Source of the DNA: Vairimorpha necatrix
Lineage: Eukaryota
NCBI GenBank assembly: GCA_036630325.1
Contig: CP142729.1
Coordinates: forward strand, 744,001 to 808,000
Length of the DNA: 64,000 bases
Direction of reading: 5' to 3'
The translations under genes were made by a program, and so were the position numbers. Shown here in pieces: positions 6,877-59,886 of this stretch (the stretch's first letter is position 1; each line of letters begins with the position of its first letter). The notes under the pieces are model-generated. The model saw nothing but the letters and a program-made list of their open reading frames with translations, did no database searches and was not told the DNA's origin.

Positions 6877-9800
6877 AAAAGAAAAAAAATCTAAAACCTA
6901 TCGAGGCAAAACCAGAAACCATGATATTTTTAAGTGGAACTAAGGAAACGACATCGTCATCTGTTGAAACAAAAGTTTCATTTGACGAAAAAGAATTTTT
7001 TGTAAAATTCTATGTTTTAGAAAGAATACCAGAAGATATAATTTTACGATATGAATTTCTTGTCGTTAACAATGCGATATAAATATAAGCAAAAAATGCT
7101 AGTTTTGGAGAACATTAAAAAAATTCCTTATATCGATGCAGCAAAACGACCGAAGAGTCTCTTGATGAAGTACTAAACGAAACCAAGCGCCTACCCATTG
7201 TTTCAGAAGATAAAAAGTTAACAAATACTCATAAACGCCCACGAAATACACAATTAGAATCACCAAGGTCACATGAACGAATATCAACGGACATATTCGG
7301 ACCGTTCAAATATTATGAACAAAAAGACAATTCAACTCCCGAGGAAAAGACAGGATAAATCCTGAATATATCAGATATATTTTCGAGAAAGAGCAAATTA
7401 TTCTTCTTTAAATCTATAAAAACAAGACAAATAATCGAGTCGATAGATCACTGGACAAAAATAAAAGAACAGCCTAAGCACGTAATATCAGATAACGGCA
7501 GGCAATACACGTCCTCAGCACTAAAGAACTATTTTAAAGAAGCAGGAATAAATCATATATTTATACCTACATATACACCCAAATCTAACGAAATCACCGA
7601 GCAAATAAATCAGACCATCGCCTTTATATTATCCAGTAATAAAAATTAAAGTATATATAAAACAGTTAAAGCAGCCGACAAAACTCCCAACATAAACTAT
7701 AATAGAGGAATTCGCGCGTCGCCATATATGATAGCCAATAAGCTCGACTTATATGACATTGAGAATAGGCCACAAACATACACACCAAAGAAAAATTCTA
7801 TTAAACACATATCACCTCTCATGGAAAAAGATATAGTTTATAAAAGAAATTTGTGCGCCTCTAAACTTGATCGTAAATATGAATCAAAAAAAATAATTGA
7901 AGAAGTTGGATCTAAAGGGAATTGGATACGACTTAAAGGCGATAAGACATGGACGCATATTCGAAATTTGAAGTTCTGAAGGAGGCCAGTATGTGATATA
8001 ATGGATCATACCACATGATTTATAAAAACAAATAAATACTAAAACGCCGATGCTTCTTCGAAACGATCAGTTATGGTCGACTATTATTGGTCAACCAAAT
8101 CTTATTTCTTTCTATTGGGTACTATGTAATAAAAATAGAGAAATTCCATGAACAACATGGTACAACATCCGAACAATAACAAACACTCTTCCTTCTACAA
8201 ATCAAATAAACAACATTCTTTTTATAACAATAAACAACCTTTTCCTTCCAACTATCTAAACTTCGGTTTTCACGGCAATCAACCCCGTAGCATCATTGAA
8301 TGCTTCCTTGCCACAGGCAAGCTCCAAGGTAAACACGCAAAGTGCCTTTTACAGTTTCTCGGCGCTTTCCAAATTTCCATTAATCAACGGATAAATTTCT
8401 TCTTTCATTATTATAAATGAATTATTAAGTCTCTTTTTTTTTATTTTTCCCTTTTTTAAATTTTTCAAAGCGGGTTCAAAACGGTCATGTCCGAAGTGTG
8501 ATACGCGTAAAATATTCCAATGTTCATTCTAAGACATTTTACATGATGTAATAAATAGTTTATAATAAAGAAGCTCATGCTTTCATTCCTTTAGCAACGA
8601 AGTCTTCTATTTTATTAGCTAAATAAAAAAGACGAAGCTGAAATTACTCAAAATTCAATTAAATTAGTTTATTAATTGGGTAATATTGTTTTGTTATATT
8701 TTCCTTTGAATTTTAAAATTCTGTTTTTTTACTTTAATTTGTTTAAAAACCACATGCAACAGTTTTACTCAAGCTCAATAGTGCGCTTATAAACCATTAT
8801 GTTATGATCAGACCTCATCTTAAATGTCATGTTAAAAGTATTTCTGTAAAAGTAAAAAGACCTTCATTCATTTTTTTTATTGCTTTAATTTGTTTATTAT
8901 AAGGAATTTACATATGTTTTCTTGTATTTCGTTTTTCTTTGTATTTTATATAATGGAAACATGTCGCAGAATTCGTGGCATTGATACATGTATCATTAAG
9001 CAATATTGTTTATAAGTTGTATCAAAAAAAAATTCGTTATACTCGGCAATGTTTATCGTCATCTCTCCTCTTAGTACTATGTTTAAATACACACAAGAAT
9101 ATTCGACAAAAAAATGATATATATATATATGTCGATATTTAATTGTTTATTAGATTTTTCATCTCTTCCTTCCATCTTGCTTAGGGGTAAAATATAAAAG
9201 TTTAAAATATTAAAATAATAAAAAACATCAAACGTGTAGCAGCTTTTGGGCACCTACGACAATATATATTGGTGAGCCAAGAAACCCCCAAATAGACCGA
9301 ATTTTATGGTCTCTCTAATGCAAGAGTTAATAAAAAACATAAAATCGAAATTAATAATGAGTTTAATATATTATCATTTAGTTCCTGACTAATGTATTGT
9401 TATTCATTAGAACATGTGTAAGCATTTTGTACTAGGTGTTTATGGAATAAAGAGTTTTTTAATCACTAGATCCCTTCAGTGACTAAAAAATTTATAGAGG
9501 AAAATCATACTAGTACGTCTTTCATACAGTCATCTTTTAAAAATCTCTAATACTAACGGGTTACGATCATCTGCCATAATCTAAGGAAAAAAAAGAATTA
9601 TAGACTGGTACTAACGGACCCGATGATTCCGATTTTTTTTTGAGTTTACCTTTTTGTTAGAAGGCATGTATGTATTGTCTTGTGTTTAAACAACATGCTA
9701 ATCTCCTCATTTCTATTACAAAATATTATGCATTTTATAAAGAAGTACACAATAAAAAATTATCAGAAAAAAAGATTGGAATGATAAGAATCTATCAATA

Positions 9801-11231: not shown

Positions 11232-11580
11232 TGTGGTATAATGGATCATACCACATGATTGTTAAAAACCAATAAATACTTAAACGCTGATGCTTATTCG
11301 GAACGATCAGTTATGGTCGACTATTATTGGTCAGCCAAATCTTATTTCTTTTCTATTGGTTACCATGTATATAAATAAAGAAATTCCATGAACAACATGG
11401 TACAACATCAGAACGCAAACAAACACTCTTCCTTCTACAAATCAGATAAACAAAACTCTTTTCATAACAATAAACAATCCTTTCACTCTAACTCTTTTAA
11501 CTCCGGTTTTCACGGCACCCCAAACCGTAGCATCATTGAATGCTTTCATGCTACAGGCAAGCTTCCCGGTAAACACGCCA
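11232..11580 (+). mobile_element. Solo LTR, family A
   Basis: TGTGGTAT...CACGCCA, 349 bp, TSD CATAT. Confidence 0.93.
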
Positions 11581-22476: not shown

Positions 22477-25400
22477 TGTTGAGATTTAAAAAATTATATT
22501 TTATACCCTTAATTTTAGAATAAATATGTTTATGATGGAGAATATAAAAAACGAAATAAACAAAGACAATATAATAGTAGAAATTAGAAGAGCAGAGGCT
22601 CTGAGTAGTTGGGCAAAAATGACCAATGAGGAGAAGTTAGATTTTTTTATAAGCAGACTTAACTCTCATATTTTAGATTGGCATTGTAGGACTTTTAAAG
22701 ATAAAAAGGAAAGCTGCTTTAACGTTTGAAATCTGGAAAAAAGAAGTGGAACAAGAATTTGAGAATAAAACATTGCTTTTTGACATTTACAATATGAAGC
22801 AAAAGGAAGAACAAAAGATGTTGATTTTATCAAAGATGTAGTTTCTAAATGTAATGAAAATGAAATTTCCAATTTTGACAGAAGAAAAATTATTAGATCA
22901 GGAGTAGATAAAAAGTTAAAAATGATTAAAATTTTTCTTACGACCCAATATGAGATCAACAAAGAATTTTACGAAATATTAAATGAGATGGAGAACGAAG
23001 CATTATTGAATATCAAGTTGGCTGGTTTAAGACTTACTAAACAGAACAACCAAATACATGCTTTAGATGCAGAAAGCCAGGACATTTAGCTAAGGATTGT
23101 AGGGTGAATCGAAATAATAAACAGGCTAATGATGATCGAAGGAATATTAATGAGATTGAAAAGGATAGTCAGGAAGTAGATCAAAGCTTTATTACGAATA
23201 AAAATAATTTTATTTATGTTGGGACTAAAAAAGTCCCCGTGGTTTTTGATTCGGGTGGGGCCTACAACTTTATCTCTCTTCAAGCTGTCTATGATTTAAA
23301 ATTGAAACTCAATAAGAATATGAATGTTTTGAAATTTTTCACATGTCTTGAAGAAGAATTTCTAGTTGAAAACCATGTTATTGTGGAATACAAATATGGT
23401 AATAGAATATTTAAAAGCAGAATGTATGTTTTACCTAAAGTTAAAAATTTTAAAATGTTAATAGGAAAAAATGATATTTGTAAAGTTTTTCGACAACCGA
23501 GCAATAGAATTTGTAGGATCAATACAAAACCAGGAGAGAAGGTAATAGAACACGTTTATAGTTTACCAAAGAAATTAGAGGAAGGAATACAAAACTCAAT
23601 AAATGAGTTATTAAAAAACGGGTATATAAGAAATCAAATTCAACATGGCTAAATAACCTTAGGCCAGTGATCAAACCGGATGGATTCATAAGAGTTACTA
23701 CGAATTTGATAGCGCTCAACAGATTGGTAGATCTAGATAATTATTCCCTCCCCAATATTGAAAGACTTATATTCAGTCCTAGAGACATGAAATATTTTTC
23801 AAAAATTGATTTAAAAGATGGTTTTTTTCAAATTAAATTGGCTGAAAAAGACAAACACAAAACTGCTTTCAGATTTAATCATTTATTATACGAATGGAAC
23901 GTAATGCCCATGAAGTTTAAAAATGCACCAGCCGTTTTTTAAAGGTTTATGGACAACGTCCTTGAAGAAGAAATAGGGAAAAATTGCTTTGTCTATGTTG
24001 ATGACATCCTTATTTTTGGTAGAAATGAAGAAGAACATGATACAAGCTATACAAAGGTTATTAACAAGCTACAAAAATATGAGCTACGAATTAACGAGTT
24101 AAAGACTATACATAAAAAGGAGAACATAGAATTTTTAAGCCATGTTATTGAATATAACAAGATAAAGCCGAAATTTTCGGCTGAACAAGGAATTGAAAAT
24201 ATAGAAAGAACAAATAATAGAAAATCTTGTGAGGAATTTTTAGGATTGATTAATTACTATCGTAAATTTATTCCACAATGTTTAATCATTGCCGGGCCAT
24301 TGTATGATTTACTTAAAAAGGATGTTGTATTTAAGTGGGAAGATGAAGAAGAAAAAGCTTTTAAGAAATTAAAAAGTATATTGAGATCACGCGTGGTTCT
24401 ATCCCAACCCGATTACAAAAAACCTTATATTTTGGAAACAGATGCATGCCAGTCAGGAATAGGAGCTATCCTCTTACAGGATCATGGAAGTGGTCCAGTA
24501 CCAATTGCTTATGCTTCAAGAAGATTGTTACCTGCTGAGATAAACTATGGAATCAGCGAAAAGGAATGTTTAGCGATGTTATGGGGGATGGAACATTTCA
24601 GATATTTCCTCTATGGAAATGAATTTACTGCAGTCACTGATCATAAGGCCCTAGAAGCACTTAATAGGGGAGAGATAAAATCTTTGCGGATCCAACGATG
24701 GTTAGACAAACTTAGTGAATATAATTATTGTGTTGTATATAGAAAAAGAACAAACATTCCACATGTGGATTGCTTATCCAGATCACCAAGACAAGAAATA
24801 TTAGAGATTAAAAATCTAGAATTAGAAATGACTGAGGAAGACAAAAGAAAAATTATCCGTGATAAACACCTAGAACTTGTCCATAGAGGTTATAAAGCAG
24901 TTCAAAATGAACTTAAAAAGAAATACGATTGGAAAGATATGGAAAAATTGACTAAAAACGAGTTAAAGAGGTGTATTCGGTGTAAAATGTATAATCCTAA
25001 AAGAGGGGAAAAAAATTTATTTGTAAAGTCACATGCAATTGGTGAGAAAGTAGCAATAGATATTATTGGTCCAATCAACAACCAATATATCGTGTCTGGG
25101 ATTGATTACTTTAGTCGATTCGGATTTGGAAAGGTACTAAGTTCCAGGGAGAGTAAGAAAATTGTAAAATTTTTAGATATGATAAATCAAAAAATTAAGA
25201 TACATAAACTAATTTTAGATCAATCGAAAGAAAACCTAAGTAAAGAAGTAAGATGTTAGCAGCAAGTAATAATGTCGAATTACATTATACCTCACCATTT
25301 CACTACCAGTCCAATGGAAGAGTGGAAAGATTTAATAGGACAATACAAGAAGGAATATACAAACAAGAGAAAAAAGAAAATCTTAAAATTAAACTTTTAA

Positions 25401-25807
25401 AGGTTTTAGATGTATATAACAATATATATCATAGTAAGTTAGGTATGTCTTCGAATGATGCTTTAAACCCGACCAATTTCCAAAAGGTGAAAGAAAAACA
25501 ATATGAGGAGATACTAAAATTCAATGAAAGAAATATAAACCGAGAAACCGAACCACAATTTTTAGAGGGGGATAGCGTTATTATAAAAACGGAAACAGGT
25601 GTCAAAAAGGGAGAACCCAAATTTAAGGTTAGAGGTTTAATTTATAAAGTTTTAGAAAACAACACATATCTGGTGAGGACAGGAAACAAAACTATTAAGC
25701 GACATTCTTCTCAGCTGAAATTGATAATAGACGAATGTTTTTAAGAGGGGGATGTTGAGATTTAAAAATTATATTTTATACCCTTAATTTTAGAATAAAT
25801 ATGTTTA
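22477..25807 (+). mobile_element. Near-complete Ty3/Gypsy retrotransposon with 55-56-bp LTRs
   Basis: LTRs 22477-22532 and 25753-25807; TSD CAGAG; PPT AAGAGGGGGA; gag, protease (VFDSGGAYNFIS), RT, RNaseH, integrase. Confidence 0.93.
23104..25744 (+). pseudogene. Gypsy pol (PR-RT-RH-IN), split by a few frameshifts and stops
   Basis: FSKIDLKDGFFQI, YVDDILIF, LETDACQSGIGA, HHCC (HLELVH..CIRC), IDIIGP, SNGRVERFNRTI. Confidence 0.92.
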
Positions 25808-30364: not shown

Positions 30365-33300
30365 ATATAAAATTTATTTGGGTATATATTCGGCTTATTA
30401 ATTACTTTTCACAAGATACGCTTACATCTCATCTAGCAGATCTAGGACTTCCTTCTGAGATTCACTCATTGGGCTCTCGAAGACCCCTTCCTGATCTGTA
30501 TCAAGCCCATGTCTGGCTGACATAGTTAGGCTTTCTATAGTCATTTTAAGGACTCTTGACTATATATATGCTATCGTTCTGGGTTCTAATCTGAGCACTT
30601 TAATATGCGTACGGTGAAAATTAGTTACTATCCCATCCCACGTCATCACATAAGGAATAATTTTCGGCTTGTATTTGTAAAGAGAAGCCACATGATTTGC
30701 GAGCAAGTCGTATTTATGCTTCTTTTCTGTTTCTTTTGCATGGAGGTTGTTAAAACTTGTGATTCCAACTTCTACAACGATCACTTCTTTCCTCAACTTG
30801 TCTACAATTAGTATATCAGGCTCGTTATACTTTATTTCAATACTTGAATGTATCCTACTGTCGGCTCGTATCTCAACATACTCATTAGCTATACATTCCT
30901 GGACTGAATGATTTCTAATTCTTTTGGCATGGGATAGACCATACGTCCTACACAACTGCAGGTGGATGCATCGCAGTGCCTCATTGTGCCGCCTCATGTA
31001 ATAATGTGAAAGCATACGATCACATTGGGTGGCCATATGATCTACTGTCTTTGCATATTCATGGCAGTGTGGGCATTTTATCCGTTTCTCTAAGAAAATA
31101 TTTCGGTCCTGTAATGCAAATAAATTGCGATTCTCTCTCGGGCTCATATTTCCTTTTGTGAGCCATGTGGCAGCCTGTTTTATATCAATAAGTGGATCGT
31201 CTCTTGGTCTAAATAGCTTTGAATGGTTTGTTTTTATTTTTATATCGCTATAAAGAGATTCGGTTTGTGCCTCTATTAATATTTTAGCTGTTACGTTTTC
31301 CTTAAGTTTATATTTCTCTTTTATATATCCTTCTATAATGGATAGATATGTGTAGCCAGTTTTCGCGGAGTGGAAAATCGCTTTGCGTCTTAGAACAGAT
31401 TCTTTCGTGCTTTCAAATTCTTTGGCTAGTTGTAAAAGCATTCTTTCACTTTATGTTCTACGCATTGGAGCCCTAATCCAAGTTCGGCTCTGGAGAGATA
31501 TAATCTTTCTTTAGTTGCAGGTTGTTGATGGACGTGATATTTAATCAATAATTTTCCGATGTTGTCGTCTATGATCTTGTATTCTTCTGGTTCAGCATCT
31601 ATTATTCCTATATAGTATTTTATTGGGCTTATTCCATGTTCATTGATTGCTTTAAACAAATGTTTCGCATTCAGCTTAGTCTTACATAACTTTTCGATTC
31701 TTAATAAGATGGCCTTCAATATTTTTTCCTTTGTTTCCTTCATTATCTTACCTTCGTGGCTTTCTGTAATGCCCAGATATTTATACCCCTCATGCCCCTC
31801 TAGCAACTTGCCTTCATCTTTACACCTTATACTATTTGTAGCCGATTTTTCCGCGTTGATTTCTAGACCTACAGTATTAAAGAATTTTCTTGTCTCATCT
31901 ATCATCTCTTTCAATACTTCCTCATTTTCCGCAAGTATTTTTAGATCGTCAATAAACAACAAATGGTTAGTTACAAATGCTTGTTCTCCCAGCGGGATGC
32001 TTAACTTGGGGTATATACTATTCAATTTACGACTTAACGGGTCTATACACAGCACAAACAATAACGGGGACAAACTATCTCCTTGTAATATTCCTCTTCT
32101 GGCCTTCTTTTCCATGATCTTCTCATTTCCTTCAAATATTTCTAGATTCCTCTTGCTGGGCAGTATTTCTATTGTCTTACATATCCACTCTGGTAGTCCC
32201 AGAGCTTTAATGCATTATATTAAATAGTCATGTCTTACTGAGTCGTACGCCTTCTTAACATTTATCCAGGCCGTTTTGATTTTATAATTAAATTCTCTAT
32301 TCAGCATGTTATTTGTCATTGCCTGTTCTTTAGCTCCCCGGACTTTCCTCTTTGTTCCCATCTGGTTATCTGCTAAAAGAGAGTTTATTTTCCACTAGTT
32401 CCTGGAGTACGTATGTAATACATTTTGTTGTAAGTTTGTACAAGTTAGACATACATGTAATGTGTCTAAAGTCTTTTCCTTCCACTGGTTGCCCTTTAGG
32501 TATCAGATAAGTAATTCCTCTGTAAAACCATTCTTCTTCCGTATAACTCTCCGGGCATATTTTCTTAATTACTTTGTAAAGAGATCCATGTAGGCAAGAC
32601 ATTTTCTTTATAAAGAAATTATAGACTCTATCTGGACCTGCTGCTTTCCAGTTGGGCAGCCATCCTATTATATTTTTAAACTCTTCTTCTGTCGGGAAAG
32701 CATTGATGCTGGGCTGTTCTATTTTGTATTTCCATAGGTATTCTTCTTCATTCTCCAGTGTTTCTTGTTTTGCATTTTCCCACATTTTCGACCAGAAATC
32801 TTCGATCTCTTTTTTCCCAACTTTATGATTATTCTTCTCCTCTGCATTTAGGTCTCGGTAGTATCTTCCACGGTAAAGTTCAAATTTTGTATTTTCATTT
32901 CTATATGCTTTTCTCTTCTCGTAAACTTCTATCTTCTTCTTGTATACCAAGATCCTCTCCTTAAGGTATAATTCCATTTTAATAACATCATTTGCTTTTG
33001 AAAGTATTAAGTTTCTTTCCCTCATGCATTTTCTTAGGGCTTTTTTCTCTTCCTCAGTTATCTTATCTTTCTCAAACTTACATTTATCAAAAAGCGTTTT
33101 CTTTTGTTCCATTGCGTTTATTTTATCTTCAATACTTTCTTTCCAAACACTTTTCTTGATTTCTTTACATGTTATCTCTTGATACACCCATTGTTGTTTA
33201 GATAATTTTGACAATATCATTCATATTATTGACTTTATTCTTTAGTAAAAAATTTCCAGCCACTAAATTTAAAGATTCTATAATTTCATAATTAGCTTTT

Positions 33301-33851
33301 AAAGAAGATATCTTTCTTGTTTTTTGTACAGAGCAAACGTCTGCATCTTTAATTTTAGTCCACATCTCTTTAAATCTTTTATCTATTTCATTTTGTCGCT
33401 CTACATCTTTTATGGTGCATACTCTTGCAATCTCGTCCAAAGTCTTTCTTCTTTTAGTTGTATTCTCCTCTTTAAACTCTCTTACTCTTGTAAGCGTCCC
33501 TGCTTCATTTTCAAGTGCTTTTTGCGCCATTTTCTTTATTCTAACAATAGATATTTTTTCCTTAAATTTTGCACAATAGAACTCTAGTACTTTGTTCCAT
33601 CCTCCCTTTGGCATCTGATTCCATCTACTTATAATGGCTTGAAAAGACTTCCTAGGCCAATCATACTTGGCACCCTCAACTTCTCTGAGAACGGCCATTA
33701 GAGAATCCAACTTGTTAGACCTCTTGGGTCCTCCTGGTTCTGTACTTAATGATACTGAGTTTATATCGTATGTTTTTTGGTTGTTTGGTGCTGCTGGTGT
33801 TGTTTCAGCTATTTTTAGTTCAGCTCCTTCTTCTTCATTTTTACCCTTCAT
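30365..33851 (-). mobile_element. R4/Dong/NeSL-like non-LTR retrotransposon (RT + CCHC + restriction-like endonuclease), ORF frameshifted
   Basis: WKAAGPD, GILQGDSLSPLLF, HLLFIDDLK, CPHC..TVDHMATQC, YMRRHNE, EPDILIVDK..VVEVGI..KKHKY. Confidence 0.9.
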
Positions 33852-43299: not shown

Positions 43300-43634
43300 T
43301 GGCGTGTTTGCCGGAGAGCTTGCCAGTAGCAAGAAAGCATTCAATAATGCTGCAGTTTGAAGTTCCGTGAAAACTGGAGTTTAGATAGATGGAAGAAATA
43401 TATTGTTTATTGTAAAATAGAGTTTGAATTATCTAAATTATAGAAGGAATAATGTTTTTAAGTGTTCGAGTGATGTACAGTGTTGTTCATGGAATTTCTT
43501 TATTTTTATAACATAGTAACCAATAGAAGGAAATTAGATTGGCCTGGCTATGACTGATCGTTCCGAAGAAGCATCAGCGCTTTAGTTTTCTATTAGTTGT
43601 TTATAAATCATGTAATATGATCCATTATACCACA
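43300..43634 (-). mobile_element. Solo LTR, family A
   Basis: Homologous to 11232-11580; TSD ATATA. Confidence 0.9.
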
Positions 43635-47353: not shown

Positions 47354-48973
47354 TTATTCTCGATTTTTTTTCTTTATATATGCGTCAAGTGTGCTTTTAC
47401 GCTTGGTCTCTTCAGTATGCTGAGCATTTATACAACTGTTAACATGGCTCTCAAATAAAAAATTATTTAAATGTAAGGATGCTTTTTTGCAGACTGGACA
47501 AATTTTCTTCTCATATACAGATCCGAGGAACTTAGACAGTCCGTTGCTATCATCATTTGAAAAACCACTACAAGTTATGCCCAAGAGTCTAATAGGATTA
47601 AGAATATTTTTATTAGTTGTTAAAAGCTTACTGTCCATTAATAAATCGTAACCAACATTAAAAATTTCAATATCTTCATTGATCTTCTTGTTTAATTTAA
47701 TCTGTTTAGTTTTACTACTAAAATTAGACGTTTTATAATTTAGTGTTATTATATTACATTTTATATTTTTCATTTTGAGTTTATCACTTAACGAAGTGCA
47801 ACAACGCCATAGAATTGTACAGATTTCAGAATGATCAATAGTGGATCTAAATGTCACATTTTTACCGACAGATTGTCTTGACTTATTTGTTCTATCACTA
47901 AAATCAAATATAGAAAGACCATATGATAAATAAAACAAATTTTTAAATGATTTATAAGGCATAGTTAGATATAGAAAATGTAGGTTATCTCTAAGTTCCC
48001 TTATAGTTCTAATTTTATAAGACTTTGCAAGAAATTCTTTAGTGGCAGAACCGATACCATTAATTTTATCAGTTTCTAAATCCAAAATATGACCATCAAA
48101 ATCTTTATCAATTACAAAAGATCCATTGGGCTTATTTATTCCACATGCATATTTACTCAATCCCCTTGTCACAGAAATTCCCCCCGATATTGTAAGACCA
48201 GTACGTAAAAATACTAAATGCCTAATATTGTCTATTAATTTTTTTATGTTTATAAAATTAAACTTCGTAGATGTCATTGGCACATAAACAGAACGGTCAT
48301 GAGAGTATTCTTTGATTTGAATTTTGTTTTTATCTTCTTTGTTTAATAATGAAATATTAAACCCTATCATGTTCATTTTAGATACCGAATTTTTAAATTT
48401 CAATACATCAAATGTCAAACATGCCTCATCAATTCCATAAATTTCAATTTTTTCATCAAAAATTGACAATACACTCATAACTTGTTCACTGAAAAAATTA
48501 TATTTTTGAAAATCACATTTAACTATCTTAAGAGTTGGACATAATTGTTTTGCCATGTATCCTGGCATACCAGCCCTTATACCATATTTTCTTGCTACAT
48601 AATTACAAGTAGCGAGCATGTTCATATTACCAACGCCTAAAGGTATTGTCTTATATTCGGGATTTTCCAATGATTCCACACTAGCGTAAAATGAATCAAG
48701 ATCTACATGACAAAATATGATCATGGGGTCTGCATCAAACAAAGCTGGATATTTTGAGCCCATCTCTTTTTTGAGTAACTTAACATGTTGAAGTGCTGAT
48801 TCTATTTTGGAAGGTGTAATGGAATCAAGTTTTTGTAAAATATCATAAGATTTATTTCGTATTTTATACAACTTCGTCTCTTTATTTTCACTAAATTCAT
48901 CGTCTAGCGTTGCTAATGATATCTTTTTAATTTTGTCCTTTTCTAGTAAATCTTCTTCGTCAGATTCATTCAT
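47354..48973 (-). CDS. polK: Y-family translesion DNA polymerase kappa (DinB family), 539 aa
   Basis: HVDLDSFYASVE, ATCNYVARKYGIRAGMP, GIDEACL, NKPNG, INGIG, little-finger QSVGKNVTF, C-terminal UBZ (CPVC...HVNSC) and PIP-like TLDAYI. Confidence 0.93.
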   Translation of the reverse strand: MNESDEEDLLEKDKIKKISLATLDDEFSENKETKLYKIRNKSYDILQKLDSITPSKIESALQHVKLLKKEMGSKYPALFDADPMIIFCHVDLDSFYASVESLENPEYKTIPLGVGNMNMLATCNYVARKYGIRAGMPGYMAKQLCPTLKIVKCDFQKYNFFSEQVMSVLSIFDEKIEIYGIDEACLTFDVLKFKNSVSKMNMIGFNISLLNKEDKNKIQIKEYSHDRSVYVPMTSTKFNFINIKKLIDNIRHLVFLRTGLTISGGISVTRGLSKYACGINKPNGSFVIDKDFDGHILDLETDKINGIGSATKEFLAKSYKIRTIRELRDNLHFLYLTMPYKSFKNLFYLSYGLSIFDFSDRTNKSRQSVGKNVTFRSTIDHSEICTILWRCCTSLSDKLKMKNIKCNIITLNYKTSNFSSKTKQIKLNKKINEDIEIFNVGYDLLMDSKLLTTNKNILNPIRLLGITCSGFSNDDSNGLSKFLGSVYEKKICPVCKKASLHLNNFLFESHVNSCINAQHTEETKRKSTLDAYIKKKNRE

Positions 48974-49408: not shown

Positions 49409-49592
49409 ATATTATCAAATTGATTCAAATTTTACTTTTTAATTGAATTTTATATGCATTCTTTTAGCCCCTTTTTTCTATCAAATCATGTCTCTACACA
49501 TCGACAGATTTAATTGGACCGGAAACACTCACAAAAGGAAAAAAAATCGAATCTGTGATATTATTAAAAAAAATAAAATTGTTTATTGAAAA

Positions 49593-52500
49593 TGGCGTGT
49601 TTTACGGATAGCTTGCCTGTGGCAAGGAAGCATTCAATGATGCTACGGTTTGGGGTGCCGTGAAGACCGGAGTTAAAAGAGTTAAAGGGAAAGGATTGTT
49701 TATTGTTATGAAAAGAGTTTTGTTTATCTGATTTGTAGAAGGAAGAGTGTTGGTTTGCGTTCTGATGTTGTACCATGTTGTTCATGGAATTTCTCTATTT
49801 ATGTCACATAGTAACCAATAGAAAGAAATAAGATTTGGCTGACCAATAATAGTCGACCATAGCTAATCGTTCCGAAGAAGCATCAGCGTTTTAGTATTTA
49901 TTGGTTTTTAGAAATCATGTGGTATGATCCATTATACCACATACTGCCACCTTCGACTAGCACTTTAGGTTTCGGACGTGCGTCCAAGATTCTTCATTCT
50001 TTAGGCGAACCCAATTCCCTTTACTTCCAACTTCTTCTATGCTTTGTTTATGTCCATACTTACGATCGAGCTTTCCTGCCTTTAGATTTCGCTTATATAC
50101 TATATCTCCCACTTTAAACTTTGGGGTGTATGATAAATTCTTTGTATTTATTCTAAAGTTTTGAAGCTTATTTTCGATATCGAAGAAATCCTTTTTGTGC
50201 GTTAAGAGATAAGTGAAGTTCAATACCTCGATTATAATTGTTATTTAAAGTGTTCTCTGCTTCTTTGACGGTGTCGTAAATATTTCTATATTTATTAATA
50301 GATATGATAAAAGTAATGGTTTGATTGATTCTCTCTGATATACCATTGGATCTTGGTGTATATGTTGGTATAAGAATATGGTTTATATCCATGTCCGTAA
50401 GGTAATTAGTGAAGTCGGTTGAGGTGTATTGCCGTCCGTTATCTGAGATCAAATGCTTTGGTTTTGCTCTACTAGAAATCCAATATTCTACGGCGTCTAT
50501 AAGTTCTTGTGTCTTAATTGCTTGTAAAAAACTAAGTGTGTTTCCCTTGAATATATATCTGTTATTGTTAAGATATATCCTGTCCTCTTTTCGGAATTAG
50601 GAATGGGTGTATAATATTAGAAAGGCCCAAAATATCCGTTGAGATTCGTTCGTATAGCTTGCCGGAGTTCATTCTTATTTCTTGTTGATTCTTGTTATTA
50701 ATAATCTTATAGTTTCAGCAGATGTTACATTTGTGGACTGTTTTTGTTATGTTCTTCAGAGCATCTTTAACGTAAATATAATTTTTTATATTGTTATAGA
50801 GCGTTGAACCCCCTCGGTGTCCTGATATTTTGTGTATAGTCTTAAGCAACGAACTTGATCTTGTCATATTTAACTATTAGTTTACCTTTGTCATTTATTT
50901 GTAACGCGTCGTTGTTTGACGCGCAAGCTCTTCTTACAGCATTATCATACTTTACTTTTAGCGATGTTGCCTGAGATATGAGGCATCGCGATAGGGAGTC
51001 CGCAGCAATATTATCTGCCCCCTTAATATGAAAAATTTTGTTAATAATGGTTAGACAAGTATTTTCTGCTAATACTTCATCTAGCATCTCTTCTGATGAT
51101 TTTTCGAGCCAATGAATGGAATTATCGTTCCTTTGTCCACAATAATAATTTTCTTTTTAATGTTTAACAACTGCGAGTTTGCCGCGAGGAATTCATAACC
51201 TACAATTATATCCTCTGGAATTTTGTGTAATACATAAAACTTTATCAAGAATGTTCTACCACTGATATCTAATCTTGATTCGACTATCTTATTAGTTGTT
51301 TCTTTTGTACCATTGCCGAATACCATAGTAAGGGGGTTTGCTTCAAATATTGGCAGTTTTAATATATTGACAATGTTCTCATGTATATAATTGCATGTAG
51401 CCCCTGTGTCCACGAATAACTGTAACATAGTGTCATTAATTTTCCCATTGATTTTAATGCCTTCATGACTATCAGTCTTTTGTTCCAATATAATAAGATT
51501 TTTATTATCATTAGATGGGGTGTTCTTATGAAGCGAACAATCTTTGGTGTTATAGAATTTGGAGTTATGATACTTGCACCATTTCTTGCTTGTGAAGTTA
51601 TTTGTAGTTTTGGTAAATCCTATGTCTTTTACAGCACGTTGACTTGTCTCTGTTGACTGTGCTAAAATATTTTCTTCAAGGTCTACTAGAAACTGTATAA
51701 TTTCTTCAAATAATGCCGATTTAAGGTTTTGGTCGGCTATTTTAATTGTTGTGTATTTGTCCAATACTCTAAAGAATATTTCATCTTGTTTTCGCTCCAA
51801 TTCTTTCCGAGAAAGTTCGTAAATATGAGTGTATCCTTCTAATTCTTTAGTAGTTTCATCCATGTATTCATTTATGGTAAAGTAATTGCACTGTTTAATA
51901 TAATCAAGTTTTTGAGAGATTATTCGGTGTTGTGTTTTGGGGTGTGGTATTATAAATACCACAAATTATTTATTTTTATTTTATCAATTTTCCCTTTTTG
52001 GAAAATAGACCATTCGACCGGTCTATTCCAAAAATCAAATATTTATTTCCTTTTTGCCCTGACCCCTACAAAATTATGAGACAAGATAAACATCAATACC
52101 ATTGGAATCCACGACCAAGGAAGGGCCTCAGAGCCAGGGACCAGTATCCCATTACGGATGCCCAACGAGGCTTTAATCAAATAAATAAAACGTATAATTT
52201 AATAGAACTATATTTGTCCAGAGGTAGCTCCTCTGGATTGCGTCATGGGGTATAGTATATTAAGAAGTTCTTTTCTTAATGCTTTATAACTTTTATTTGT
52301 TAATTTTGATTTATAAGTGAAATCATAGATTAGACTATGGTATATTTGACCGGCTTGTGTGTCATTCCACTTATTATACTCAGAAGTAGTTTCGAACTCT
52401 TTGAGACCTGCAGTTGTTAGGTCGGTTTTAATATTAAATATTTTGAGTATATGTTCGATGGTGGGTACGTCTGTTCCTTCAACTATTCTTTTAAATTCCG

Positions 52501-52912
52501 CGGAATGATGTTTGTTATCAGCTGTAACTGGTTTTTTACCTTTAATGCCATTTGAGCTCAAATTGGCGTGTTTACCGGGAAGCTTGCCTGTGGCAAGGAA
52601 GCATTCAATGATGCTACGGTTTGAGGTGCCAAGAAGACCGGAGTTAAAAGAGTTAAAGGGAAAGGATTGTTTATCGTTATGAAAAGAGTTTTGTTTATCT
52701 GTTTTGTAGAAGGAAGAGTGTTGGTTTGCGTTCTGATGTTGTACCATGTTGTTCATGGAATTTCTCTATTTACATTACATAGTAACCAATAGAAAGAAAT
52801 AAGATTTGGCTGACCAATAATAGTCGACCATAGCTGTTCGTTCCGAAGAAGCATCGGCGTTTTAGTATTTATTGGTTTTTGGAAATCATGTGGTATGATC
52901 CATTATACCACA
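49593..52912 (-). mobile_element. LTR retrotransposon, family A copy 2 (gag-PR-IN, no RT/RNaseH core)
   Basis: 349-bp LTRs 52564-52912 and 49593-49941; TSD GAAAA; LFVDTGATCNYI; HIKGADNIAADSLSR; ISDNGRQYT; SNGISERINQTI. Confidence 0.93.
51943..52245 (+). mobile_element. Solo LTR, family B, nested antisense in gag of family A copy 2
   Basis: TGTGGTAT..ATACCACA...CGTCA; TSD TGGGG. Confidence 0.92.
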
Positions 52913-52917
52913 GAAAA

Positions 52918-53698
52918 AAATACAATATCAACAAAACGAAGAAAAGCCACCAAAATCTCACCAATAAAGATAAATCATCAATAATTGCGTTTACACGCCA
53001 GCATACCTCTTCGGCCTCGCTTGTAGGAGAAAAGTTTGTTCCCATAGGACACATCCTTAGTCATAATATGACTAGAGACCCACTTTCACGGGTCTAATGA
53101 AAAACGAAAACGCCTGGCTCAATACACCATTTAAGAACACGACTCGGTTCAGCGGAACAGTACAGCATCAGTATCATGCCCGACCTCTCCCAGGTCAAAT
53201 ATAATTAAATATAAGTCTTTTTGTTAATAATATAACACTTCTTTCTTCTAATTCTAGATTTTCATTTTTTTTAATTAAGCTATATTAAAAAAAATAAAAA
53301 TAAAATTGTTTATTGTAAAAAAAGACAAAATCAGCAAAACGAAGAAAAGCCTCCAAGCCACCAAAAACTCCACTAATAAAGAAAAAATCATCAATAATTG
53401 CGTTTACACGCCAGCATACCTTAACGGCCTCGCTTGTAGGAGAAAAGTTTGTTCCCATAGGACACATCCTTAGTCATAATATGACTAGAGACCCACTTTC
53501 ACGGGTCTAATGAAAAACGAAAACGCCTGGCTCAATACACCATTTAAGAACACGACTCAGTTCAGCGGAACAATACAGCATCAGTATCATGCCCGACCTC
53601 TCCCAGGTCAAATATAATTAAATATAAGTCTTTTTGTTAATAATATAACACTTCTTTCTTCTAATTCTAGATTTTCATTTTTTTTTAATTAAGCTATA
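52918..53698 (-). repeat. Tandemly duplicated ~410-bp 3' UTR of the LINE (copy B 53285-53698; copy A 52918-53284 plus 49562-49592); partial third copy 55869-55984
   Basis: Near-identical direct repeats; AATAAA near the 3' end on the - strand; copy A is split by the family A LTR element. Confidence 0.92.
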
Positions 53699-55537
53699 TT
53701 AATTATTTTGTTTCGTTATCTCCTTCAGTTTGTTATTAATCATAATTCTTCTAGAGACAACCATTCTATCTAAGAACTCTATAGTGCAACAAAGTTCTTT
53801 TATCTTATCTGGGTTATTTTTTAGTCCGATTTTATTACCAAGGAGTTGCTTGGTTTTATCTCGGATATTTGTTTTTGAACAAGTCAGTAGAGGCAGTTTA
53901 TTTTCAAAAGATGATCTAATGTCAGTTAAACAGACGCACTCCAGAAGAAAGTGTTCTAAATTTTCTTGTGGTCCATCACACAAAAAGCATTCGTTTCTAT
54001 AACTCATTGGTATTCTTTTTGAATATGCTATTGCTGAGGACCACTTTACTAAATTACATCTCAATCTAGTATATGTTCTAATTTTTCTATTGTTTATTTT
54101 GTTCATGACATATTTTATTTGTGAATTTCTTATGTCATATTGGTTTGCTATTGATGCAGCTAAAGAAGTATTTAGAGTTCTTCGACTTCTTAGTACATCA
54201 ATTATTTTTGAAGTGATAAATTTACTATCACTTGATTCGTATTCGAAGCCGACAAATCGTTTTAACCATCTTTGTGTTCTTGAACACCAGGTAGTTTTTC
54301 TTTCTTTCGGATTTATTGCAATTATATCCGATATGATTGTCTTATTGTGTTTCCACTTGTTGTATGCTCTAAATCTACTTAAAGCTGCTTGTATATGAAT
54401 TCGTTCGATACTGAACTCGTCCATTACTCTATCTAGTGGAACTAATACTCTTTTGAATATCATTCTGATAGATTTTCTTAAGATCCTGTTAATCTTACCT
54501 GCTCTTGTACTTGACATTCCCCACAGTTCACTACCATACATTAGTGTGGGTACTAGTACACATTTGATTAAGATCGCCTTGAAGTAAAGGTTGATGCTAT
54601 TATTCATCAACTTGGGCATCAAGGCGTCTAAGGCTTTCTTGCCACGCATTGCTGCGTCTTTGACCAAATGTTCTTCTAGCGTGTTTCTTTTAATTAAGAC
54701 ACCTAGATATCTGTATTCAGTGACTTCTTCAATCACACCAAAGTCTGTACTGAGAGAATACAAACTTCGGAATTCTTGTATGTTAGAATGAGCATTCCAT
54801 TCTAATACTCCGCTTTTTGTGCAGTTAATCTTCATTCTGTTATTAACTGCCCACTTTGAAATTCTATTGATCTTATTATTAAGATCATCAATGTTGTTTC
54901 CGAAGACAACAATATCATCTGCGAACATCAGTCCCGGAACTCTCGTATTTGATCTTGGGATCAAAACTCCTTCTATGCCGTCAAAAATATCATTGATGAA
55001 TATATTGAACAGCATTGGAGAACAAGGGCACCCTTGTCTCACTCCTTTTCTGTAGCTATAACCACTTGACGTGTCACCACCAATTTTCACACGCATGGTG
55101 GTATATTTATAAATATCCTTTATTGTATTGATTAAATACAATGGGATATTAAGTTTTGTAAGCTTTTCAAATAATAAGTCATGACTTACATTATCATAAG
55201 CTTTTTCAAAGTCAATGAAACACATTATTGTGTTCAAGCCTCTGAATTCTCTTCTTCTCACTATTTCTAGTAAAGATGTAATCTGATTCATACACTCTTC
55301 ACCTGCTCGGAATCCTGCTTGGTATCTAGAGAGTATATCTTGTTCTTCGACAAATTGAGTTAACCTGTCATTTATTATCTTGAGATAGATCTTACTAATT
55401 GTGTTAATTAAGGAGATTCCCCTATAATTATTTAGATCTGTCTCATCTCCTTTTTTGTGGAGGCAAATCATGTTTGCCATGCTCCAGTATTCAGGAGGAC
55501 TATTTCCACAAATATATTTATTAAATTCATGTAGCAT
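53699..55537 (-). CDS. Non-LTR (LINE-type) reverse transcriptase with C-terminal CCHC finger; reading frame extends upstream to about 55960 across one frameshift
   Basis: NKAAGPDEIP upstream in frame; NYRGISL, QAGFR, FIDFEKAYDNV, GVRQGCPCSPMLFNIFI, FADDIV, YRYLGV, CFLC..ENLEHFLLEC; no APE or RLE domain seen. Confidence 0.93.
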   Translation of the reverse strand: MLHEFNKYICGNSPPEYWSMANMICLHKKGDETDLNNYRGISLINTISKIYLKIINDRLTQFVEEQDILSRYQAGFRAGEECMNQITSLLEIVRRREFRGLNTIMCFIDFEKAYDNVSHDLLFEKLTKLNIPLYLINTIKDIYKYTTMRVKIGGDTSSGYSYRKGVRQGCPCSPMLFNIFINDIFDGIEGVLIPRSNTRVPGLMFADDIVVFGNNIDDLNNKINRISKWAVNNRMKINCTKSGVLEWNAHSNIQEFRSLYSLSTDFGVIEEVTEYRYLGVLIKRNTLEEHLVKDAAMRGKKALDALMPKLMNNSINLYFKAILIKCVLVPTLMYGSELWGMSSTRAGKINRILRKSIRMIFKRVLVPLDRVMDEFSIERIHIQAALSRFRAYNKWKHNKTIISDIIAINPKERKTTWCSRTQRWLKRFVGFEYESSDSKFITSKIIDVLRSRRTLNTSLAASIANQYDIRNSQIKYVMNKINNRKIRTYTRLRCNLVKWSSAIAYSKRIPMSYRNECFLCDGPQENLEHFLLECVCLTDIRSSFENKLPLLTCSKTNIRDKTKQLLGNKIGLKNNPDKIKELCCTIEFLDRMVVSRRIMINNKLKEITKQNN

Positions 55538-55986
55538 GAATTTAAAGAATTTATCTTCTACTGCTCTAGTCAGTAAGTGTTTGTATAGCTCGGTTGGAAT
55601 CTCATCAGGACCGGCTGCTTTGTTATTTCCACATTTCTTCAGTGCGGATAGAAATTCTTCATCTGTTCTGTTATCTCTGGGGGAAGATCAACAAGATCTA
55701 CTTTATCATAGACATTGACATCTATATCATTCTCTGACGCCAAATCAGCGTAAAATTTATTCGCTATTTCTAGCTTCTTTGCTCGGCAAGTCTGAAGAAT
55801 CTTATTGTGGTCAATTAGAGCCACTTGATCCAAACGAATGGAGACACTTCTATTTTTCAGCCTCCTAGTTTCATGAGTCTGATGAAAAACGAAAGCGCCT
55901 GGCTCATTACACCATTTAAGAACACGACTCAGTTCAGCGGAACAATACAGCATCAGTATCATGCCCAACCTCTCCCAGGTCAAAAT

Positions 55987-56055
55987 AGAAATTTGCACCT
56001 AGTTAAAAAACATCGGTCCCGCCCTCCGCGACGTGGACGCTCTCTTGTGGAGGGT
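55987..56055 (-). ncRNA. HDV-like (nested double pseudoknot) self-cleaving ribozyme, predicted
   Basis: Minus strand: P1 ACCCUCC/GGAGGGC, P2 AGAGA/UUUCU, P3 GCG/CGC, L3 UCCACGU, P1.1 CC/GG, P4 ACC..GUU/AAC..GGU, J4/2 GCAAA; folded by eye. Confidence 0.82.
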
Positions 56056-56104
56056 TTCGGTCCCACCCTCCACGACGTATACGCTCTCTTATTTGTATAC
56101 AACA

Positions 56105-56348
56105 CCTACTATACATACAAAAAAAGCAGTAACCTCAAAATGTCGGCATACACCTTCATTCTTACAGTTCTGCTTAAAAGAGTAGTATTCTCCTAAATGT
56201 ATCTTTGAGCTACGCTTCAGGCTTAAGAGGCTTTCAGCCTTAATCGAAACGACGTAGCTAAGCAACATAACTTAATAGTTAATCGCACTACCAGTGGTCA
56301 TCACTTAGAGTTCCTCTCGTACTATCAAAGTTCACTCAAAAATACTTA

Positions 56349-56390
<42 letters not shown>

Positions 56391-56825
56391 TCTCACGTTC
56401 CTCATTACCGGGTGAACAATCCAACACTTCGTAACATATACACTACGATGATCAGAAGAGACGACATCGAAGAATCAAAAAGCAGAGTCGCTATGATCGC
56501 TTGCCTGCTACAAGCCAGTTATCCCTGTGGTAACTTTTCAATCACCCAATACATAATGAATGTAATTGGGATCGCTAGGCCAAGGTTTCCCTACTAAATA
56601 CAGTCATATGCATAAAGTAAAGCAGATTTATTCCCTTATAATAAACTGATGGTTACCATCCATCATTCATCTACCTTAGGACAGCTGTGTTACTTTTTAA
56701 CAGCTGTACCGCCCCAGCCAAACTCCCCATATATTCTAATAAATAAATATTCAAACATACTAGTGGTTTCACAATACTTCTCCCACCTCTCTACAATATA
56801 CCGAATATTTATTAAAACATACTGA

Positions 56826-56857
<32 letters not shown>

Positions 56858-56956
56858 GATAAATAACAAGCCCGTTCCCTTGTCTCGTGGTTTCACAAAA
56901 TTGTAAGTAGGGACAGTAGGAATCTCGTTGCTCCATTCATGCGCGTCACCAATTAA

Positions 56957-57009
<53 letters not shown>

Positions 57010-58603
57010 ATTCGCTTACACAACTTTAACAATAAATGCACTGGGCAGAATTCACTTCTTGTAAATACAAAAAGCTATGTTTTTAATAAACAGTCAGATT
57101 CCTTACATAGTAAAAGTTCTAGCATGCTAGAGCCAATCTTTATCCCAAAGTTACAGATCTAATTTGCCGAATTCCCTTACTTACTTTAATTTAAAATATT
57201 TGTTATGATACAAAGACACCTGATGCGGTATAGGTACGGTTAAAATTATTTTATTTTTATCAAGTATATATAATTAACTATTTCTTATCATGACAATCCA
57301 TAGTTAAAATTAAATTTAATTCATTTATCTTAAATTTATTGAAATATACTGTCATTATCAAGTTACCTTATAATAATTTAATAAAGAATTATTAATCTTT
57401 TTTGTTTTTATAAATAACACCGATTCACTTCAATAATAATTGAAAACCCTAGTCTATATCTATACAAATATATTGTTACTGCCTCCAAGATCGGCTCATT
57501 TGTTTCTTCTATATATACTCACATATATACTTCAATACAAACAAATTGCACAGCTACCTAAATATTTATTAGAAACATCTCATAAAAGTAGTAATCTTCT
57601 TCCATTTTATACAATAATACATTCGGTAGGTACGTTGTAACACGTTTCTTAGCGGATTTCTACTTCCATAACAACCGCCCTACTGTCTCAATGTATTCAT
57701 CATATTTATGGTATAATATCTACTATTTAGAATATTTAATGTTTCATAAGGTTCATCCCTTTTTGCACATCATTCTTACAATCATGTGCCCACTAGTTAT
57801 ACAATAGATTCATTATATAAATTTAATTTATATAATTCCATAGAATTAAAGATTTCTCATAGTTAAAAAACTATAACAGTGTCCTACATCTATGTCCTAT
57901 ATAATAATAACTGCTGTCCTGAGAGACATTTCGCTGTGAACCAGCTACCACACAGTTCGATTGGTCTTTCGCCACTATACACATCTTAAATCATCGATTT
58001 GCACGTCAGAATGATTATGGTCTTCCAATAAACTGTTGCTTATCTTCAACCAGAACATGTATAGTTCACTGTGTTTCGGGTCTTATAATTATAACTAATC
58101 AAGTTAATAAAGATTAAAAAATTTAATTTTTATCTTGCTATAATTATAATCTCCTTGGTCCGTGTTTCAAGACGGGTCCTTAAAAATAAGGCTAAACTCC
58201 ACACATTTTCACAAGTTCCTTCGCAGTACTTATTTTCTATCGGTATACCATTATATTTAACCTTAGATATTTCATTCTACCTTTATTCAAACTGCACTAC
58301 CAAGCAGCTCTACTCAAGTACATTATTCTATTCTATTAATAACGAATATAATATTCTCTATAAATATAATTAATAGAATAAACCATTTACAACTCCAATT
58401 AAGGATTACAATGGAGGGTTATTTCTTGTTCACTCGCTGCTACTAAAGAAATCCTAGTTAGTTTCTTTTCCTCCTTTTAATGATATGCTTAAGTTCAAAG
58501 GGTTATCAATACATTATAAATATATTAATTAGGTAAATAATATACTTTCGTATTCTATTACGACCTTCATCGTTATGGTATCCTATTGATCCCATGTGTG
58601 GAT
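56105..58603 (-). rRNA. Large-subunit rRNA (microsporidian, 5.8S fused); 3' end approximate
   Basis: GAACTTAAGCATATCA, GACCCGTCTTGAAACACGGACCAAGGAG, GGGAGTAACTATGACTCTCTTAAGGTAGCC, sarcin-ricin AGTACGAGAGGAAC on the - strand. Confidence 0.97.
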
Positions 58604-58639: not shown

Positions 58640-59886
58640 ATATGATCCTGCTAATGGTTCTCCAACAGCAACCATGTTACGACTTATATCAGATCTAATA
58701 CATATTATTCAAGTAGTTTTCACTAATTTCACAACACATATCATCTTAGATAGCGACGGGCGGTGTGTACAAAGAACAGGGACACATTCAATTCTACTTA
58801 TTTAATAAAATTTACTAGCAATTCCAAGTTCAAATATCTCTTACAAAATATTATCCCATAAAGATTATATATCTATTGTATTGCGCGTGCAGCCCAAAAT
58901 GTCTGAGGGCATAACGGACCTGTTTTAATCCTTTCCTTCCTACACTGATTGTGTCTGTCTATTAATAAAAGGGTCTCACGTCTTGTTGAAATTAATCAAA
59001 ACTTCACAGCATCCATTGAAAACGGCCATGCACCACTATTATCATTCTCAGATTGAAAATCTTCTCTGAATAATAAAATATTGGTAAGTTACCTCGCGTT
59101 GAGTCAAATTAAGCCGCACAATCCACTCCTTGTGGTATTCTTCCGTCAATTTCTTTAATTTTCAATCTTGCGATCATACTATCCCCAGAGCCAAAAAACT
59201 CAAATTTCTATCATCTAATACAATTAATATCATATCACATCGTCGGCATAGTTTACTGCTGGAACTACAATGGTATCTAATCATCTTCGCTCCTCCAGCT
59301 TACGTCCTTGTTCAAAAAATACATACAAGTGTACAGCTTTCGCTTCTGTTCGTCCAGTCAGGGTCGTCACATTTCATCTCTCTCCCAACTATACAGTACA
59401 CCTCATATTGCTTCTTAAATATAAACTACGGACTTTTTAACTGCATCAATCATCATACACACTCTTGGAACAAGTATTACCGCGGCTGCTGGCACTTGAT
59501 TTGCCCTCCAATTAATCACCTCATATACTTTTACAATATGAAACAATAGAATATTACTTCCCATAACTGCCTCAGATAAAATCCATAGGTCAAGTTTCGC
59601 CCCTGCTGCAATCCTTAGACTTAGTAGCCGTCTCTCAGGCTCCTTCTCCGGAATATTACAAAGTAATACCGTTACCCGTCATTGCCTTGTTAAGCCATTA
59701 CCTTAACAACTAGCTGATAGGTCTCACTCTTACTGTATATGTCTTATGCTACACTTTAACGCAGTTATACTAATTTAATACATTAAATAAAGTGAGTATT
59801 ACTGAGCAGTCCATTTTTCCATATCAAAAACATGCATGGGTTAATCTTAGGGAATAGCGTCTACGTCAGGCAGAATCAACCTGGTG
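58640..59886 (-). rRNA. Small-subunit rRNA, about 1247 nt, Vairimorpha-type
   Basis: CACCAGGTTGATTCTGCCTGACG start, GTGCCAGCAGCCGCGGTAA, GTACACACCGCCCGTC, AAGTCGTAACATGG...GCAGGATCATA. Confidence 0.98.

Follow-up and report, generated by a model that had tools for sequence, protein, structure and literature searches.

Can a retroelement draw on the transcription of ribosomal RNA (rRNA) with the help of a self-cleaving ribozyme, and do so from behind the rRNA gene rather than from inside it? This question is raised by a 64,000-nucleotide (nt) stretch of the Vairimorpha necatrix genome (contig CP142729.1 of assembly GCA_036630325.1, positions 744,001 to 808,000; hereafter the window), in which a 69-nt motif resembling the ribozyme of hepatitis delta virus (HDV) lies between a large-subunit (LSU) rRNA gene and DNA related to a long interspersed nuclear element (LINE). 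An earlier inspection of the letters alone (the sequence-only reading) had proposed that the motif heads a retroelement, which would ride RNA polymerase I (Pol I) read-through and free itself by self-cleavage. Our analysis indicates that the 69-nt stretch is most likely a true HDV-type module. As to what it serves, we tentatively favour, with a probability of roughly 0.45, a real 5'-processing module that works, or once worked, for this LINE lineage and its short derivatives, in an array behind the ribosomal DNA (rDNA) that is now defective. Positions below are those of the window, and features lie on its minus strand, which is the rRNA-sense strand, unless otherwise stated.

An HDV-like module just beyond the LSU rRNA gene

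The candidate occupies positions 55987–56055, and its sequence, strand and position are exactly those given by the sequence-only reading. Four lines of analysis bear on it: the sequence itself, a structural descriptor run with shuffled controls, RNA folding and a match to the CPEB3 model of Rfam. Members of the HDV family have five helices arranged in two coaxial stacks, a two-pair P1.1, a U•G reverse wobble (G25•U20) in L3 and a catalytic cytosine in J4/2, according to PMC13635239, and PMC3774820 describes their cleavage site as fixed by the pairing of about 7 nt of P1 with about 7 nt that directly follow L3/P3. Pair lists drawn up for the candidate bear out the earlier statement that all HDV parts are present in order (P1, P2, P3/L3, P1.1, P4 and a J4/2 containing C55995). 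Together they form the nested double pseudoknot P1-P2-P3-L3-P3'-P1'-P1.1-P4-J4/2-P2', with standard pairs everywhere except at the first position of P1.

P1 (56055–56049 with 56027–56021) opens at the cut end with an A•C apposition, A56055 opposite C56021, as the sequence-only reading had flagged, and continues with six Watson–Crick pairs. P2 (56045–56041 with 55991–55987) contains five pairs, one of them G•U, and P3 (56040–56038 with 56030–56028) consists of three G–C pairs. The loop L3 (56037–56031) reads U-C-C-A-C-G-U; it supplies the U and the G of the reverse wobble, as well as the two nucleotides that pair as P1.1 (C56036 and C56035 with G56019 and G56020). P4 (56017–56015 with 55999–55997) has 3 base pairs (bp) and a 15-nt loop. 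J4/2 (55996–55992) reads G-C-A-A-A and places the candidate catalytic cytosine, C55995 (the equivalent of C75), ahead of purines that would dock on P3. The minimum-free-energy (MFE) fold of the isolated 69-mer contains P1 (6 bp), P3 and P4. The predicted cut falls between 56056 and 56055, and the nucleotide that precedes it is an A, at a position where PMC1874588 gives a preference of U > C > A > G for the genomic HDV ribozyme.

The motif sits in an rDNA setting. Rfam models place the small-subunit rRNA at 58640–59886 (microsporidian model RF02542, 1053 bits) and the LSU rRNA at 56120–58525 (eukaryotic model RF02543, 1351 bits), the 3' end of the latter being approximate. From our own reading of the sequence, which is an estimate, the last LSU helix closes at 56129–56124. 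The location just beyond the LSU is thus as first described, whereas the distance, earlier given as about 50 nt, comes closer to 65 nt when counted from the helix end near 56124, the LSU end itself being uncertain. The claim that the motif is a GC island holds: its local GC content is 0.53–0.70, against 0.2–0.4 in the surroundings. The Rfam LSU match extends as far as 55997, across both spacer and motif, and its final 250 model positions have low posterior probability. Over 55997–56120 on the minus strand, this alignment forces the helices of the motif into the last LSU helices of the model, again at low posterior probability, and automated annotation would probably hide the motif inside an rRNA feature.

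The motif exceeds chance expectation

We wrote a descriptor that required a P1 of 7 positions with at most one mispair, a J1/2 of 0–8 nt, a P2 of at least 4 pairs, a P3 of 3 and an L3 of the form U-C-C-N-N-G-N, followed by a P1.1 of Watson–Crick pairs, 3 or more bp in P4 and C-N-A/G-A ahead of P2'. Across both strands of the window it matched a single locus, the candidate. Dinucleotide shuffling of the whole window produced a match in 2 of 400 trials, and shuffling of the local 171 nt in 1 of 20,000. Because a duplicated hairpin could supply P1 for free, we also held both P1 strands fixed and shuffled the remainder; none of 200,000 such shuffles satisfied the descriptor. All these figures are generous to the candidate, since the descriptor was composed post hoc. 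A looser version gave 40 matches in the window and was dropped as non-specific; one match of that kind, near a second LINE remnant, was inspected and dismissed.

Rfam offers an independent check, of a kind that the sequence-only reading had proposed. At a permissive threshold over 55850–56200, the best match was to CPEB3_ribozyme, an HDV-like family, in the same register as our model, with a score of 15.7 bits that lies below the gathering score of 35. Its E-value of 0.16 was computed for 351 bases × 2 strands × 4227 families and corresponds to about 4e-5 for that single family on this stretch. The P3/L3/P3' block is one position away from the consensus of the CPEB3 model, and Rfam models cannot score pseudoknots. 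We accept the motif as real: a chance look-alike is very unlikely.

A defective LINE array begins at the edge of the module

Retroelement DNA begins 2–3 nt after P2' (55987) and is oriented as the rRNA. Its first part is a 123-nt segment (55862–55984), and beyond this lies a LINE copy (53699–55860) that corresponds to residues 506–1223 of the family open reading frame (ORF), carries a reverse transcriptase (RT) and a C-terminal Cys/His motif, and ends in a stop codon at 53701–53699. The ORF at 55687–53699 matches RVT_1 with an E-value of 2.9e-39. Its closest relatives form a protein cluster at 78% identity, which includes proteins named from Vairimorpha ceranae and two members of 1223 residues. 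One of the latter (P0132) contains an endonuclease of the apurinic/apyrimidinic (AP) type at residues 156–362 and an RT at 640–892. In a tblastn search of the window, P0132 aligned over residues 506–572 (55860–55663) and 570–1223 (55666–53705), and residues 1–505 were left without a match. Given that LINE-homologous DNA starts at residue 506 and the endonuclease spans residues 156–362, the local copy is therefore without an endonuclease. The upstream LINE frame matches a second relative (P0005) only from residue 122 onward (BLASTP), and the N-terminal linker of P0005 found no match in the longer proteins.

The claim that a LINE-type RT follows on the same strand is accordingly right as to the RT, which belongs to a truncated and frameshifted copy. 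The bolder claim that the ribozyme heads a retroelement is partly supported, with a LINE downstream on the same strand in its favour, and against it a 123-nt non-LINE segment in between and a defective LINE copy. As its sequence stands, the local copy cannot be an autonomous, self-releasing element.

The 123-nt segment recurs at 53612–53492 and 53199–53079, inside tandem units of 0.4 kb that lie behind the LINE stop codon. Its copies are 93–95% identical, and their homology ends sharply on both sides. Unit A (53317–53702, about 0.4 kb) opens with 65 AT-rich nt, continues with the 123-nt segment and a body of about 200 nt, and ends in a LINE-type tail. Unit B (52914–53288) is a tandem copy of A (94% identity by BLAST against 53317–53702) and is cut off at 52913 by a repeat resembling a long terminal repeat (LTR). 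The LINE ends in a tail at 53678–53698 that comprises a short unique stretch and A9, and the same tail ends unit A at about 53265–53288. The LINE copy and unit A thus have a common 5' segment and a common 3' tail and differ inside, while unit B is interrupted before its end. This is the pattern expected if the LINE copy and the units, which lie head to tail in rRNA orientation, had arisen from a single LINE family by internal deletion. Neither the 123-nt segment nor units A and B matched 5S, tRNA or any other known RNA family. When the motif was searched in the window at up to 3 mismatches, its own locus was the single match, with none in units A or B.

The coding content of the 123-nt segment was also considered. 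Its 33-residue peptide has no similarity to the full-length LINE protein. The ORF at 55998–55639 contains a frame that is continuous with the LINE linker; from an ATG at 55962 within the segment, 45 open non-LINE codons lead in frame into that linker (55962–55639, minus strand). In units A and B the frame from the same ATG stops after 27 codons, at a TAG that is CAG in the LINE-adjacent copy. This open frame may be accidental, or its ATG may be a remnant of the genuine start codon of the family.

Two further repeats touch the units. Near-perfect 12+12-nt palindromes occur in the unit bodies on the plus strand (53054–53078 and 53467–53491), where Rfam returns a weak mir-44 look-alike (16 bits, E 1.4). 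An interspersed repeat of about 350 nt is present in six copies of 75–95% identity (52560–52912, 49589–49941, 11232–11580, 7992–8341, 4504–4907 and 43300–43634). Two direct copies of it, 2971 nt apart, flank a gag/aspartyl-protease ORF (51081–51863), and, judged from this arrangement, the repeat probably belongs to an LTR retrotransposon, which would have truncated unit B at 52913 when it inserted.

A decayed upstream copy and a competing hairpin

Immediately upstream of the predicted cut lies a partial copy of the ribozyme core, X1 (56057–56090), which is identical to 56013–56046 at 30 of 34 positions (88%), at a spacing of 44, and spans the core from the 5' strand of P2 to the 5' strand of P4. 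The homology between X1 and the core stops at 56057, 1 nt from the predicted cut. An end so close to the cut would be expected if an RNA starting at the cut site had been reverse-transcribed and joined to an older copy, and it counts as one coincidence, with a chance of perhaps 5–10%. Tandem Repeats Finder did not report this two-copy repeat.

The two copies have decayed differently. At all four differences between X1 and the core, the downstream copy has C and X1 has A or U, and two of these positions are the L3 cytosines on which P1.1 depends. The reverse holds for the next 10 nt: six cytosines survive after X1 where the sequence behind the downstream copy reads U or A. In the decayed upstream copy, the X1 unit carries U at the cut-end position at which the ribozyme has C56021/A56055. 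Among positions with C in either 44-nt unit, the parts needed by the ribozyme (56056–56047 and 56046–56013) keep the cytosine in 15 of 15 cases and the other parts in 5 of 15 (Fisher p = 0.0002), a test that treats both 10-nt tails as homologous; the 34 nt alone give 4 of 4 and p = 0.06. This retention fits purifying selection that would act, in AT-biased surroundings, on precisely the pieces that combine into the ribozyme.

As a separate observation, all 12 differences between the 44-nt units (56003–56090, minus strand) alter a C, A or U of the rRNA-sense strand; the 15 G positions of the 34-nt core are all identical. In 10 of the 12, one unit has C and the other U or A. Such a strand-asymmetric loss of C is as expected from deamination of the non-template strand, if the region is or was heavily transcribed. 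An apparently compensatory hairpin in the second unit was discarded as evidence, given that a run of U pairs with any run of purines.

The duplication also creates a second structure, a perfect 9-bp hairpin with a 9-nt loop (56047–56073; arms 56073–56065 and 56055–56047). In it the purine arm of X1 pairs with 56055–56047 and thereby ties up the 5' strand of P1, which is the substrate strand. If the ribozyme is active, X1 would probably attenuate its cutting in read-through RNA. Self-release in the form first proposed is not supported by these results: the element is frameshifted and without an endonuclease, and the hairpin competes for the substrate strand of P1.

Ownership of the module

We show the motif, its statistics and the anatomy of the LINE and the repeats, and infer catalysis, co-transcription with the rRNA and ownership of the ribozyme by the element. 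The events that we propose are these. Transcripts that read out of the rDNA, or that start nearby, would fold the HDV-type module; C55995 would act as the general acid, and the RNA would be cut between 56056 and 56055. The cut would release retroelement RNA that is headed by the ribozyme, in the manner of R2, RTE and L1Tc. The copies in the window, a frameshifted LINE that lacks an endonuclease and units that have no ORF, could at best depend on mobilisation in trans. Of the possible owners we favour the element because HDV-type modules in eukaryotes typically process the 5' ends of non-LTR retroelements, among them R2 at the 28S/R2 junction, where duplications of the 5' junction are common (as described in PMC3774820), and because retroelement DNA starts 2–3 nt after the module in rRNA orientation.

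Several observations weigh against this assignment. Within the motif, the cut end of P1 has A56055 facing C56021 in place of the G•U wobble of the HDV family, P2 is rich in A–U and G•U pairs and P4 has just 3 bp; a protonated A•C pair can imitate wobble geometry. The descriptor was post hoc, the CPEB3 match falls short of its gathering score, and the remaining HDV-type Rfam families gave no match at E-values up to 10 over 55850–56200. In its surroundings, the competing hairpin is more stable than P1 and P3 together (−16.0 against −12.2 kcal/mol; RNAfold), every MFE fold computed with upstream context forms it in place of P1, and in read-through RNA that comes from the LSU its formation would precede the synthesis of P1'. 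Downstream there is no intact endonuclease–RT ORF: about 1.5 kb of coding sequence and any 5' untranslated region of the family are missing from the LINE copy, which is frameshifted near 55666. In a three-way alignment, 65 nt of AT-rich DNA and no ribozyme precede the 123-nt segment in units A and B, such that one of the three copies of this segment has a ribozyme upstream; the element family may therefore truly begin at 55984, which would make the ribozyme part of the flank.

Relatives of the locus were also sought and are part of the same balance. From an alignment of the RT against metagenome contigs 80 loci were retained, all at ≤35% identity and useless for DNA comparison. The descriptor had no match in these 80 unrelated LINE loci (418,190 bases), which shows that the wider RT clade is, as judged by this descriptor, not generally headed by ribozymes. 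A motif pattern tolerant of the differences between the local copies gave no match in metagenome, prokaryote-genome or viral contigs, nor did the 123-nt anchor in viral contigs or the full-length LINE family protein in genome and viral contigs. The plus-strand ORF at 55819–56193, which runs across the LSU end, both copies and the 123-nt segment, was used as a protein-level proxy for homologous DNA and had no match apart from a spurious one to a repetitive protein of 1408 residues. A homologue of the motif was thus found neither among the contigs nor through the protein proxies. A literature search, which was not exhaustive, found no report of an HDV-like ribozyme in Microsporidia.

The alternative most to be reckoned with, although we hold it to be unlikely, is that no ribozyme exists at all: the two GC-rich 34-nt copies would be sub-repeats of the spacer, such as sites for a Pol I termination protein or hairpin units, and the HDV-type pairing a by-product of a duplicated hairpin. 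Repeated terminator elements are usual behind the LSU in rDNA, and here a direct repeat at a spacing of 44 lies just downstream of it. A tandem duplication of a hairpin unit yields P1 automatically; the best local pairing is the hairpin within a unit rather than P1; and the A•C pair at the cut site, the sub-threshold Rfam score, the weak P2 and P4 and the want of comparative support all count in its favour. Against it, the other features (P3 abutting P1', the U-CC-G of L3, the GG for P1.1, P4, C-N-A-A and P2) did not once arise together in the 200,000 shuffles that granted P1. The cytosines, too, are divided between the copies, those of L3 being kept solely downstream and those of the tail solely upstream, which together make up exactly the ribozyme set. 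Moreover, the 12-nt core of the repeat has no exact occurrence elsewhere in the window. In another and somewhat less probable account, the module is real HDV-type RNA but a functionless relic, either the 5' end of some other, lost retroelement or a template-switch product, with no link to the adjoining LINE family. The region is indeed littered with the remains of transposable elements (LINE, LTR-type repeat, gypsy-type and DDE transposase fragments), homology breaks off sharply on both sides of the 123-nt segment, and the partial upstream copy shows that rearrangement has occurred. Yet none of the required cytosines has been lost, despite a strong local bias towards AT and the decay of the paralogous copy, and an unrelated relic would have to end by coincidence no more than 3 nt ahead of the retroelement array.

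The position of the family's 5' ends invites a different owner. All three start at the same nucleotide (55984, 53612 and 53199) and the ribozyme stands ahead of the first alone, a pattern that would fit a ribozyme belonging to the rDNA unit and cutting Pol I read-through about 65 nt past the LSU for 3'-end trimming, for entry into termination or for both, with retroelements that landed downstream of it. The rRNA-sense strand and the proximity to the LSU end agree with this, and so does the fact that an HDV-type ribozyme sits wholly 3' of its own cleavage site, which suits the formation of a 3' end. However, the upstream hairpin would hinder precisely this co-transcriptional use, the window shows a single rDNA unit and no relatives were found, and units A and B may be one duplicated copy, which would leave two independent 5' ends at most. 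We know of no use of an HDV-like ribozyme in rRNA 3'-end formation, a point on which no dedicated search was made. Such a host-encoded spacer ribozyme appears quite improbable to us, and slightly more so the version in which an rDNA-owned HDV ribozyme cuts the nascent Pol I transcript and the non-LTR elements behind it owe a defined 5' end to the host's cut. The reading that we prefer thus remains a 5'-processing module of the LINE lineage. The locus is a good candidate for a further HDV-type ribozyme in an unusual place, and its defective partner element and masking hairpin temper any expectation of present activity.

Other elements of the window

The window as a whole contains few genes and much transposable-element debris, including gypsy-type pol and protease pieces, an IS1595-like DDE transposase and two LINE remnants. 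The transposase, of the IS1595/ISXO2-like kind, is encoded by an ORF at 38–1126 on the minus strand, and a gypsy-type RT–RNaseH–integrase fragment lies at 23949–25744 on the plus strand. The second LINE remnant (30560–33851, minus strand) is unrelated to the first, being about 26% identical to it in the RT, and is split over several ORFs; no convincing HDV-like motif was found upstream of it. Among the few apparently ordinary host genes is an intact ORF of 539 residues for a Y-family DNA polymerase (47354–48973, minus strand; IMS and IMS_C domains).

Implications and comparison with known systems

Microsporidia would gain their first described HDV-like ribozyme if the candidate is active. If our preferred reading is true, a ribozyme-processed retroelement would lie behind, rather than inside, the LSU rRNA gene, and Pol I transcription would be borrowed without inactivating the rDNA unit. 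Were the ribozyme host-encoded instead, it would bear on rRNA 3'-end formation in highly reduced eukaryotes. The locus is also a natural experiment: a decaying upstream paralogue masks the substrate strand, which makes the attenuation of self-cleavage by flanking sequence measurable.

Among known HDV-like ribozymes, that of mammalian CPEB3 (RF00622) gave the best Rfam match, in the same register and with a P3/L3/P3' block nearly identical to the consensus. It differs in being intronic and mammalian, and the 5' strand of its consensus P1 is G-rich, whereas here P1 opens C-rich with an A•C pair. The likeness would accordingly be one of HDV fold, and we do not claim membership of the family.

A closer parallel to the array is offered by the L1Tc/NARTc elements of trypanosomatids, in which the Pr77 ribozyme occupies the first ~77 nt and is common to an AP-endonuclease LINE and to short non-autonomous derivatives, as described in PMC3185411, PMC3383444 and PMC4035085. 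Like these elements, the present array combines a LINE with short units that have common 5' and 3' ends; unlike in L1Tc/NARTc, both short units here carry the 123-nt 5' segment but no ribozyme.

The R2 element is the nearest counterpart in location. R2 occupies a fixed site within the 28S gene and encodes a restriction-like endonuclease, whereas the candidate lies beyond the LSU 3' end and leaves the rRNA uninterrupted, and full-length members of its LINE family have an AP-type endonuclease, with none in the local copy; for any comparison with R2 in site specificity, one copy is seen here. In common with the candidate, the 5' ribozyme of R2, as described in PMC3774820, has an HDV-type fold on the rRNA-sense strand and is found where an rRNA unit meets a non-LTR element. 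The likeness extends to the state of the locus: according to PMC3774820 and PMC4370867, R2 too shows partial duplications at its 5' junction, and defective, truncated copies of it are common.

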